DNA from: a plasmid
Assembly: GCF_057098645.1 (NCBI RefSeq)
Contig: NZ_JBXSPU010000002.1
Reading direction: 5' to 3' (one strand)
DNA: 64,000 bases
This document shows positions 47,301 to 50,300 of this stretch, one piece after another (the stretch's first letter is position 1; each line of letters begins with the position of its first letter). The position numbers were made by a program.

Positions 47301-50300
47301 CTCGTAAACTGCTCTTTATCGTCCATCACAATCCTTACACTGTAGGGGCCTGTTTTGTCAGACGCGACCACCGGCTATGAACCGACAAGACGTCAGTCGC
47401 CTGCCAGCCCGGGCGAGGTGGAATACAGTTTACCAGTTCCGGCCGACCGACTTTGCTGCCAGGAGACGCTAAATACACTAATATTGAATCGTTGCATCTT
47501 CGATATCCGGGTGACATTCTGGTTCCCGGCTTTTCTGATCGGGTATGTAATGATCAATGCCCCCTCCCCCAGGATAAAATTATCAGGGCGCAAGGGTAGC
47601 TGGAGGAAGGATGGATACCATACATTTCTGCTTAATGCTTTTTTTTTGCTTCTGACGTTCTGGTAATCTAATTTTTATCACGATTTGAAAATGATAAATG
47701 GAATACACGTAATGAGTTACGCCCACCTTTTTGAAAATTGCGATCATGTTATTGAGGGCAACATTCTCCTCGACATTGCGAGTATTCCGCCCGTTCTGAA
47801 AAAGGCCCTGATCTTTCTCATCCAATCCGGACTGGAGCGGGAGGCATTTAACGCTCAATTAACAGAGCTCTTGATATTACCGCAGCCGAATTGTCAGCCC
47901 ACCTGCTTACTCCGGGAAACGCCTGAATGCGGTTCTTTGTCTTTACCTTGTTTTAATTTCACTACATGCTAACGTATGCATACATTAGGCAAAATGGTTT
48001 CTCCAATGGAAAAGACGCAATCACCCGCAGAGCGCTTTTACGAAAGCATTTATTATTCTGATGAAAGCCTGGAAGAGGATTACCTCGCGGAGCTCCGCAA
48101 TTTCAGCAGCGACCACTGGGACACTGCACTGCGTGCCGCCCGTTTGTCTGCGGCGGTAAAGCGTTTCAAGACATCGGAGATGCTTCGCTTCATTCTGGAA
48201 TTCGTTGTTCCCGAGAACGCTCAGGAAGACGCCCCCGATCTGACACCGCTCGCAGCGAAGCGGCTTTGCAACTCCCTGTTCGGCCGGTCTGGTAGCCAGT
48301 CCATTCTTGTCTATGTCTTTGGCCAGGCAGGCCGTGTGCATCGCAGTGCAACCTGTTCCCCCAAAACCATAGAGGCTATCGCTGCTCTTTATCGTTCTGA
48401 CGCTGAACGCTACTGGAATTCAACTCTTGCGACAATTGAAAGGGTCAAACACACCTACCGCGCAAAAATCCGAAACTCCTGATCCAGTTATTAGACCTTA
48501 CGCCTTAATGCTAATGTATGCGTCCATTAGCTTTAAGCGAAGACGGACTTATTCAGGATGCTTTTACCAAAGAAGAACCACTGGGATTGGTTTTGATGGC
48601 TGTGCCAATTTATATTACCGGTCTGATCATGATAGGTACTCTGTTCACATGTAAGAAATGAACAGCCTGTTTCTGTTTAAGGCGAACAGGTTTATTCTCT
48701 TCACGCTTCCATGTCCCCCATAATTTCCCATCCCTCTTCAGAGCAATGAGTAATTGTTTGGTCCTTCAGATTCTCCCACCCTACTGTCTTCGCAGGCCGT
48801 CAGGCAGACACTTTTAAGCCGGTGGTTATAGAGACCAATACGGACGATTTCCTGGAGATAATCCCTTTCCTCCACCGTTAGTAACTGCCCTTCCTTTGAT
48901 TTTGTAATCATGTCCTGCCAGTTAAGCAATTTCTCGTAATTCACATGCTCACTGGTGTCGAGGCAATGCAGCCGGAAGTAACGCATAAACAGCGGGAATT
49001 CGTCGGTCTGGGCGATATCTGAAGCTCTGACGGTGAGCCGACACAAACACACAATGGTGGCCTGCTGCATTCTTATCAGCACATTCATGCTCTGGGGTAA
49101 GTTGTCCGGCAGCTTCAGGGGGCAGTCGGAAAGGCGTTGTAGAAGTGGTCCTGCTTCCGCTGGCTCGCGGCCCTCATATACCTTCAGGGGCTCGGTCCCC
49201 AGTTCCTGCATCATGGGGTGATACAACCATTCGCGTGACTCCGTCGCATCAATGATGATTTTCTCGATACATTCACTGTAGGTACCATCTCGTCTACCAA
49301 GCTGAACCTGACTGATTTCGTATTCTATATCCGGCAGATCAATGCGCAATGCAGCTACCATCTCCGAGGCATGGAGATGGTCGAACGTCAGTTTCCCGGC
49401 CACACTGCGGTCAATGTCCAGAAACACAGCTACGCAGAGATCGTTCACCTTCACAAACAGATCTGCCGTTGCGCCGAACATGCTTCCGCTGCCGCTGACT
49501 TCATCAAGTGGGACCGTGCCTCCATCGTAACCGGCCAGAAGATGCGGGAATCCTAGAAGTTGTTTTTCCTGAATAATTTCAATAATTTTTCCCCGAATCG
49601 CCTCCATCAGGCCATCACAATCACCGAGGAGATCGGTACTGTGGCTATAGTGCCAAAGTTTGACCTCTCCCTGTCTGGCTATCAAATCCGTACGACACCC
49701 AGGACAGATGCAGTTGCATGCGCTTCCTCTGCTGACTTCCGTGATGTCCAGAAACCGTCCGGTTTCGCGATGGAGTCCGAAAGGAATCCCATAGGTATAG
49801 CTCTTTCGCATGTCAGTGCCCCCGCTGAATACATACCTTCACTATATCGGGCGAAGACAGCATGACACTTCGATAAGAAGACTATTTTTCGTGAGATTTT
49901 AATACCGTAACTGAGCGGATTGATAAAACGATGATGATTAGACACGGGTGAAAAGTTACTTTTCCGATTGCCAAAACCTCCACCAGCAGTGTGCCATATT
50001 AATCTGGACGGATTCGGAATTAACGAGCGTTTCTTCAGCTGACTCATTTTTTGGCCGAAAATGGCTTTGTTTTATACACCGCAATTACCTTCAATGCAGT
50101 TTGTGGTTATTAATATAATCCATTATAAATTTCATGAGCTCCGGGTCACTTCGGGCTGAAAAAAGGACTTTCGCTACTTCTTTCATTGCATTTGTCGCAT
50201 TACTGGGTAATGACTCCAACTTACTGATAGTGTTTTATGGTCAGATAATGCCCGATGACTTTGTCATGCAGCTCCACCGATTTTGAGAACGACAGTGACT

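Follow-up and report, generated by a model that had tools for sequence, protein, structure and literature searches.

Gene and domain layout

What kind of protein does the CoiA-like gene of this enterobacterial plasmid encode? The stretch of DNA that we analyzed, hereafter the window, comprises 64,000 nucleotides of an IncHI1 tet(X4) plasmid (NCBI RefSeq assembly GCF_057098645.1, contig NZ_JBXSPU010000002.1). The gene, for a 357-amino acid (aa) CoiA_N/nuclease-fold protein (WP_001232452.1), occupies 48738–49811 on the minus strand as a single, complete, ATG-started open reading frame (ORF), at the position given in an earlier note on this DNA. In the ORF listing the protein begins MRKSYTYGIPFGLHRETGRFLDITEVSRGSACNCICPGCRTDLIARQGEVKLWHYSHS; this start agrees with the aligned orthologues, every one of which begins at the same MRK, in the form MRK(S/A/V). 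The motifs that the note quoted are present as well, ACNCICPGC at residues 31 to 39 and WHYSHS at residues 53 to 58. The gene is under purifying selection, which rules out a pseudogene: in comparison with the IncHI2 orthologue, nonsynonymous and synonymous differences per site are 0.161 (pN) and 0.866 (pS), given as proportions in place of a dN/dS ratio because synonymous sites are saturated.

The protein is composed of three parts, all encoded on the minus strand. A β-hairpin and a C2H2 zinc finger (C36, C39, H54, and H57, accompanied by conserved C32 and C34) occupy residues ~9 to 60 (49632–49787). A putative, divergent restriction-endonuclease-like, or PD-(D/E)XK-like, core follows at residues ~65 to 205 (49197–49619), and an all-helical C-terminal domain that is specific to the plasmid clade makes up residues ~220 to 345 (48777–49154). 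In the structural model, the zinc module is small and built of β-strands (residues 11–14, 20–22, 42–46, and 54–57), while the core consists, in order, of a helix (67–83), three strands (85–88, 98–122, and 125–132), a short helix, a strand (152–158), helices (159–188), and a last strand (193–197). D117 marks the start of the second core strand and F130-L-D132-I-D134-R135 the end of the third; R156-I-D158 lies on the strand after it, and R193-x-W195-x-x-H198-P199 farther downstream. The order of the modeled elements is that of the restriction-endonuclease-like fold, and the structural neighbors of the modeled core are mostly PD-(D/E)XK nucleases, so that the model lends weak support to a nuclease-like fold class.

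Relationship to CoiA and to proteobacterial relatives

Is the protein a CoiA? CoiA has recently been shown to be the D-loop resolvase of transformation; it is reported to be restricted to Bacillota, with YraN in the same role elsewhere (bioRxiv 10.1101/2024.02.06.579203). The earlier note had assigned our protein to this competence family from its finger motif, and the finger is indeed of the CoiA type. CoiA_N (PF25164) is the only significant Pfam family in the protein, matching residues 33 to 59 with 29.1 bits against a gathering cutoff of 26.3 (E 6.8e-7). All 60 relatives scanned match CoiA_N too; C36, C39, and H57 are invariant in 132 relatives, where C32, C34, and H54 are conserved at 90% or more. 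The CxxC...HxxH motif is more than a chance resemblance. When the plasmid clade was aligned with CoiA by hhalign, the zinc finger alone aligned (Prob 93.5%). The CoiA reference alignment consisted of 12 Bacillus sequences, homologues of a Bacillus CoiA that was validated by its three CoiA domains and its 92% identity to Bacillus stercoris CoiA.

The other two domains that define CoiA were not detected. Neither CoiA_nuc (PF06054) nor CoiA_C (PF25166) was found in the protein at a maximum E-value of 1, in ten relatives and orthologues at a maximum E-value of 10, or in 60 relatives at E 0.01, while authentic CoiA, as a positive control, returned CoiA_N together with CoiA_nuc at 178.7 bits (E 1e-52) and CoiA_C at 206.8 bits (E 2e-61). 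The alignment of the 132-sequence broad family with CoiA extends over 108 columns (Prob 92%, E 6.6e-7) and reaches the second and third core strands, and the register of these strands is unchanged when the finger is cut off. Once the finger is removed, the match of the core to CoiA is marginal (P 0.002, Prob 13%, 31 columns), and we therefore regard homology of the core to the CoiA nuclease domain as suggested, not established. A profile comparison of the kind that the note had proposed, run here with hhalign, upholds its claim for the finger; for the core the match is marginal, and the predicted nuclease fold finds weak backing in the modeled strand order and structural neighbors.

Five features of CoiA were compared, and the protein has one of them, CoiA_N. 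It lacks CoiA_nuc, the catalytic pair of Asp and Glu, CoiA_C, and the setting of a chromosomal competence gene of Bacillota; we therefore do not file it as CoiA. A genuine CoiA orthologue working in natural transformation would be consistent with the CoiA_N match and with the naming of related gammaproteobacterial proteins by NCBI and UniRef, and with these alone. The domain tests already contradict it: the two domains that are so strong in true CoiA are absent, and the catalytic Glu is missing. The gene, moreover, sits on a plasmid in Enterobacterales, and CoiA is reported from Bacillota only. We consider this explanation very improbable.

The plasmid protein and Bacillota CoiA have several features in common. 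Both have an N-terminal C2H2 finger with a CPxC...HFxH signature, followed by a conserved Cys (C65 here, C57 in Bacillus); in both, a PD-(D/E)XK-type core, putative in the plasmid protein, stands directly after the finger, with the second-strand Asp residues aligned (D117 here with D100), and a C-terminal extension of ~140 aa completes a chain of 357 aa here and ~383 aa in CoiA. Unlike CoiA, the plasmid protein has no HMMER match to CoiA_nuc or CoiA_C, has Phe130 in place of the catalytic Glu and Ser108 in place of the first-strand Glu, and carries the additional conserved cysteines C32 and C34 as well as an extra core strand and helices between residues 150 and 190. Its C-terminal domain is unrelated to that of CoiA and all-helical, and its gene is plasmid-borne in Enterobacterales, with no known competence regulation.

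How large is the family to which the protein belongs? A word-indexed search recovered only 14 clusters, all with at least 49% identity, and an exhaustive phmmer search, with E 1e-3 as the limit, returned 2429 cluster representatives, of which many are 250 to 350 aa long and match residues 9 to ~205. The protein has every residue that characterizes this broad family (C32, C34, C36, C39, H54, H57, C65, P89, D117, W195, and H198). It is a plasmid-specific branch of a large CoiA_N-containing family of Proteobacteria, the core of which has no Pfam model.

Among the family's members are gammaproteobacterial proteins of ~300 aa, labeled "competence protein CoiA family protein" by NCBI and UniRef, that have CoiA_N with or without DUF7828/DUF7830. 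They are homologous to the plasmid protein over residues 9 to ~205 (E down to 1e-17, 23 to 35% identity) and share with it the CxCxCPxC...WHFAH finger, C65, P89, D117, K/R193-x-W195, and H198-P199. They differ in lacking the helical C-terminal domain, many having a C-terminal CxxC...CxxC ribbon, and in the loci examined their genes lie in chromosomal islands and not in an IncHI backbone. One subgroup has E108 and E130, and another reads Y130-F-T-H-P-G-R. The DUF7828 and DUF7830 matches in the relatives were rejected as additional domains: they overlap the zinc-finger region, where true CoiA matches them as well (residues 13 to 58), and because they cover this same region they are uninformative about the core.

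Four residues outside the C2H2 finger, C32, C34, C65, and H198 (~49217–49718), show little or no variation across the broad family, and Bacillus CoiA retains only the Cys equivalent to C65. Together they may form a second metal site that ties the finger to the core. The core also has a gray-zone likeness to the minimal PD-(D/E)XK nucleases YraN (UPF0102), Hjc, and McrC; there is no sequence similarity to these enzymes, which lack a zinc finger, and their canonical D...(D/E)xK is not kept in the plasmid protein. Scans of the protein against NCBIfam, PADLOC, and PHROGs yielded nothing useful, and when the PDB was searched by sequence, neither the protein nor the 132-sequence profile returned anything beyond chance matches. 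We found no usable publications on the protein's RefSeq accessions, on "CoiA-like" proteins, or on DUF7828 or DUF7830.

Active-site positions

Does the core retain the residues that CoiA needs for catalysis? Both the catalytic Asp on the second core strand and the Glu on the third are required in CoiA (D95 and E105 in Streptococcus pneumoniae), and alleles mutated at either residue fail to complement the transformation defect of a coiA mutant (bioRxiv 10.1101/2024.02.06.579203). By hhalign, E89, D100, and E113 of Bacillus CoiA align to family positions 108, 117, and 130, at which the plasmid protein has Ser108, D117, and Phe130. The PD-(D/E)XK signature D...(D/E)-x-K is incomplete: D117 is present, and the (D/E)xK position reads F130-L131-D132.

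D117 is near-invariant across the 132 relatives, and position 130 splits the family. E130 is kept in one subgroup, mostly with E108, H135, and E156-x-D158; a larger one has Y130-F-T-H-P-G-R; and the plasmid clade has F130-L-D132-x-D134-R135, with Phe in nearly all members and Tyr in one. At position 108 the clade varies among Ser, Asn, His, Asp, and Gly. There, too, D117 is replaced by Pro in two members (P0012 and P0015), the second of which also lacks D134 and D158, and the Klebsiella orthologue reads FIN-DTSE, without D132 and R135. None of the candidate catalytic residues is universal within the plasmid clade. In the IncHI1- and IncHI2-like members, represented by a 13-sequence alignment, D132, D134, R135, E150, D158, D161, and E163 are all invariant.

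Because the protein has Ser108 and Phe130, and because D117 has become Pro in some members of the clade, its conserved function would be independent of the canonical two-acid site. The reading that we prefer, while giving it somewhat less than an even chance, is that of a three-domain protein of a CoiA-related superfamily that binds DNA structures, with a noncanonical or lost catalytic site, encoded by an accessory gene of the IncHI backbone. The CoiA_N-type finger and the nuclease-like core would bind DNA, with single-stranded or branched DNA the probable target if CoiA is a guide, and the helical C-terminal domain could serve in self-association or in binding a partner. The core would be a divergent PD-(D/E)XK-like domain, perhaps remotely related to the CoiA nuclease domain, and the protein would either bind DNA structures only or cleave them through a rewired site drawn from D117, D132, D134, and D158.

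The main alternative is an active structure-specific endonuclease, a plasmid analogue of CoiA or YraN that cuts D-loops or other recombination and replication intermediates of plasmid DNA. Its site would combine D117 with D132, D134, or D158, with R135 or R193 replacing the Lys. The finger and the PD-(D/E)XK-like core, which follow one another as they do in CoiA, itself a D-loop resolvase, speak for such an enzyme, as do the near-invariance of D117 in the broad family and that of D132, D134, R135, and D158 among the 13 IncHI-type sequences. By the strand register of the hairpin, position 130 would face D117, and D132 would stand at the third position of (D/E)xK, where the Lys is expected; the acidic site may have been relocated. 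However, the canonical Glu position is Phe (or Tyr) across the clade, E108 is lost, and with Pro at position 117 in two members and neither D132 nor R135 in the Klebsiella orthologue, no catalytic candidate is universal. We regard an active endonuclease as possible but on the whole unlikely.

Backbone setting, expression, and possible roles

How widespread is the gene among plasmids? A tblastn search found homologues in 2810 of 72,556 PLSDB plasmids (about 4%), 2495 of them covering at least 80% of the protein. Identity is at least 99% in 210, 60 to 80% in 1120, and below 60% in 1396; IncHI2 examples have ~74% and Klebsiella IncFIB/IncHI1B examples 32 to 35%. The carriers are IncHI1 and IncHI2 multidrug-resistance plasmids of Salmonella, Escherichia coli, and Enterobacter together with large Klebsiella IncFIB/HI1B plasmids, and the annotation is hypothetical in every PLSDB row shown. 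No homologue was found by tblastn in 50,697 phage records.

The conjugative setting named in the earlier note is borne out by the 4-kb region around the gene, which is 100% identical to many tet(X4) plasmids, including pYPE10-190k-tetX4 (IncHI1A, MOBH, MPF_F). The presence of the gene on such a plasmid, which the note had called unexplained, is that of a backbone gene. In pYPE10-190k-tetX4 and in R27 alike, the identical CDS carries the annotation "hypothetical protein". The protein is 100% identical in the prototype IncHI1 plasmid R27, in the same order hha–IS1–repE–IS1–gene, and the order Tus, ORFs without assigned function, recombinase, hha, gene is kept in IncHI2 plasmids, Klebsiella plasmids, and metagenomic IncHI-like contigs. 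The gap between hha and the gene is 85 bp in the Klebsiella plasmids, and on one metagenomic IncHI-like contig a Rep3 gene lies between the two, without IS1. The gene is normally found just downstream of hha in a block with Tus and a tyrosine recombinase; in R27 and in the window, IS1–repE–IS1 separates it from hha. The gene may be cotranscribed with hha, although the gap between them varies (85 to 360 bp) and the upstream DNA is poorly conserved.

Along the minus strand of the window, the order is Tus-like gene, two ORFs, recombinase, IS5-family element, hha, IS1, repE, IS1, and the CoiA-like gene. The Tus-like gene lies at 57535–58494, the tyrosine recombinase gene at 55121–56311 on the strand opposite to the CoiA-like gene, and hha at 53637–53849. 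Between the last two, an IS5-family element (~54000–55070; transposase ORF 54048–55016, minus strand) is present that pYPE10-190k-tetX4 does not have, shifting downstream coordinates by ~1066 bp; the window must therefore derive from a close relative of pYPE10-190k-tetX4 and not from that very plasmid. The FIA-like replicon gene repE (51296–52099) is bracketed, as in R27, by two direct copies of IS1. One (52618–53386) lies between hha and repE; the other (50204–50973, minus strand) stands between repE and the CoiA-like gene, directly upstream of the latter and in the same orientation, with repeat arms of 770 nt and insA and insB on the minus strand, and R27 is arranged alike. A third, inverted copy (45408–46177) bounds the 4-kb backbone segment that holds the gene and joins it to the tet(X4)/estT/ISVsa3 resistance region. 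Neighbors that act in DNA transactions (Tus, the tyrosine recombinase, Rep, and HNH endonucleases) would suit the endonuclease alternative.

The CoiA-like gene converges, as the note had remarked, with a repeat-flanked ORF, a 168-aa frame at 47976–48482 (plus strand) that matches no family and is probably R0175 of R27. The inverted repeat that brackets it (47958–47988 and 48511–48541) is weak, 31 nt long and 77% complementary. As a conserved partner this ORF was rejected: among the loci compared, only those of IncHI1 have it, and those of IncHI2, Klebsiella, and metagenomic origin do not.

What do published data on R27 say about the gene? Its R27 coordinates are 154,290 to 155,363, directly before IS1, and the deletion Del15 (150,566 to 156,499) contains R0168 to R0176 followed by R0177 (insB) and R0178 (insA) (PMC4853401 supplementary table). 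As the gene directly precedes IS1 and R0176 precedes insB and insA in the Del15 list, the gene is most probably R0176. All of the R27 deletions but Del18 were obtained, and Del16 alone lowered stability (PMC4853401). Del15 covers the gene and was obtained with stability kept; maintenance in E. coli thus does not require the gene, and the deletion of its region without a stability defect counts against an active endonuclease.

In microarrays, the signal of R0176 rose from 154 at 25 °C to 807 at 37 °C (fold change −5.24), the top induction at 37 °C in Table 1 of that study (PMC7366339). In an htdA mutant, in which conjugation is derepressed, R0176 was also the sole gene with a reported decrease at 25 °C (63 vs. 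154), and at 37 °C its signal in this mutant was 109 vs. 807, a −7.42-fold change (PMC7366339). If the gene is R0176, it is expressed, according to these R27 arrays, by vegetative cells at 37 °C, with conjugation off, and the protein would act in that state. The convergent neighbor R0175 was 10-fold up in the htdA mutant at 25 °C (PMC7366339), and transcriptional interference between the two convergent genes is possible. Because the upstream IS1 has the same orientation as the gene and was likewise more expressed at 37 °C (PMC7366339), read-through from it may contribute to expression.

Several points weigh against a DNA-structure-binding protein with a noncanonical or lost site, the reading that we prefer. 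The signal linking its core to CoiA is marginal once the finger is removed. The charged residues that are invariant among the IncHI1- and IncHI2-like members would be compatible with an active site that has moved, and PD-(D/E)XK enzymes such as Cfr10I are examples of migrated acidic residues. The identification with R0176 rests on gene order in a supplementary table and not on coordinates, and the conserved synteny may merely reflect vertical inheritance of the backbone.

Could the gene be regulated through a plasmid operator? A perfect 13-bp palindrome, AAAAGTWACTTTT, lies ~140 nt upstream of its start codon (49951–49963) and is a candidate operator that may serve some plasmid regulator. Five exact copies occur in the window (4512–4524, 12654–12666, 14168–14180, 49951–49963, and 58000–58012), together with a one-mismatch copy at 58138–58149. 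With one mismatch allowed, the 12-mer has 11 strand matches against 0.76 expected, a number reached in 0 of 100 shuffles. Besides the site upstream of the CoiA-like gene, the copies occupy the start of a thermonuclease gene that faces a dcm methylase gene, the interiors of dcm and of the Tus-like gene, and an intergenic region; their flanks are unrelated. In R27 and in the L002/L003 contigs, too, the palindrome precedes the orthologous gene, and further occurrences were seen in R27 and in IncHI2, Klebsiella, and metagenomic relatives (L002/3, L008/9, L012, L013, and L014).

A broader proposal, which we offer as a long shot, is that the clade branched off the CoiA superfamily, with its catalysis rewired or silent, and regulates or guards DNA transactions of IncHI plasmids, switched on at host temperature under HtdA control while conjugation is off. 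It might, for example, limit RecA-driven recombination or transfer by binding D-loops, stalled forks, or incoming single strands or by processing them, and it may work jointly with the neighboring module of Hha/H-NS, Tus, and the recombinase and by way of the AAAAGTWACTTTT palindromes of the backbone. Should the protein have an effect on the recombination, establishment, or transfer of the plasmid, it would matter as a target in the spread of resistance; otherwise, the gene would be one more accessory gene with a nuclease-like fold. The existence of a large CoiA-related family in Proteobacteria, one branch of which is fixed in a major plasmid backbone with a remodeled active site, raises the question of the family's role and of whether a zinc finger joined to a nuclease fold is a general device for recognizing DNA structures.

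Alternatively, the gene might be a single-gene defense or inter-element competition factor, its nuclease-fold product directed against phage DNA or the DNA of competing plasmids. Distant relatives do occur in variable islands rich in defense and toxin–antitoxin genes: P0027 adjoins an LmuB-like SMC ATPase, a type I restriction subunit, HipAB, and an integrase; P0234 adjoins PycTM, SymE, ParE, an OLD-like ATPase, and Mrr; and P0015 comes directly after a DUF6933 protein that matches the PADLOC candidate PDC-S63. Two HNH endonuclease genes also lie near the gene in R27. However, this association is anecdotal, drawn from a handful of loci without enrichment statistics, and a constant partner gene is lacking. 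PADLOC-DB 2.0 assigned no defense family to the protein (E 1 or better) or to P0015, P0016, and P0027; the catalytic motif is degenerate in the plasmid clade; and the absence of homologues from the phage records gives no sign of an arms-race counterpart. We judge a defense role improbable.

The more distant members (34 to 40% identity) occur in other settings, one of them in an integrase-bounded island and another on other enterobacterial plasmids, where it follows tniA/tniB-like genes and the gene for a DUF6933 protein. The relative P0027, of the Y130 subgroup, is encoded 25 bp downstream of the gene for an SMC-type ATPase of 893 aa, which has matches to Lamassu LmuB models (E 4e-26; locus L011, 3295–6954), in an island that also has a type I restriction subunit, HipAB, and an integrase; the ATPase and P0027 may form a two-gene defense module. 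On other enterobacterial plasmids (locus L005, 3974–9038, and also L006 and L007), a 40%-identical homologue ends a tight row of genes for a resolvase, a 552-aa protein with weak Mu-transposase/rve similarity, an AAA ATPase (AAA_22/AAA_16), and a DUF6933 protein, PDC-S63 of PADLOC, after which the homologue follows 17 bp on. This row resembles a cargo-bearing module of the Tn5053/Tn7-like kind; the PD-(D/E)XK proteins include TnsA of Tn7.

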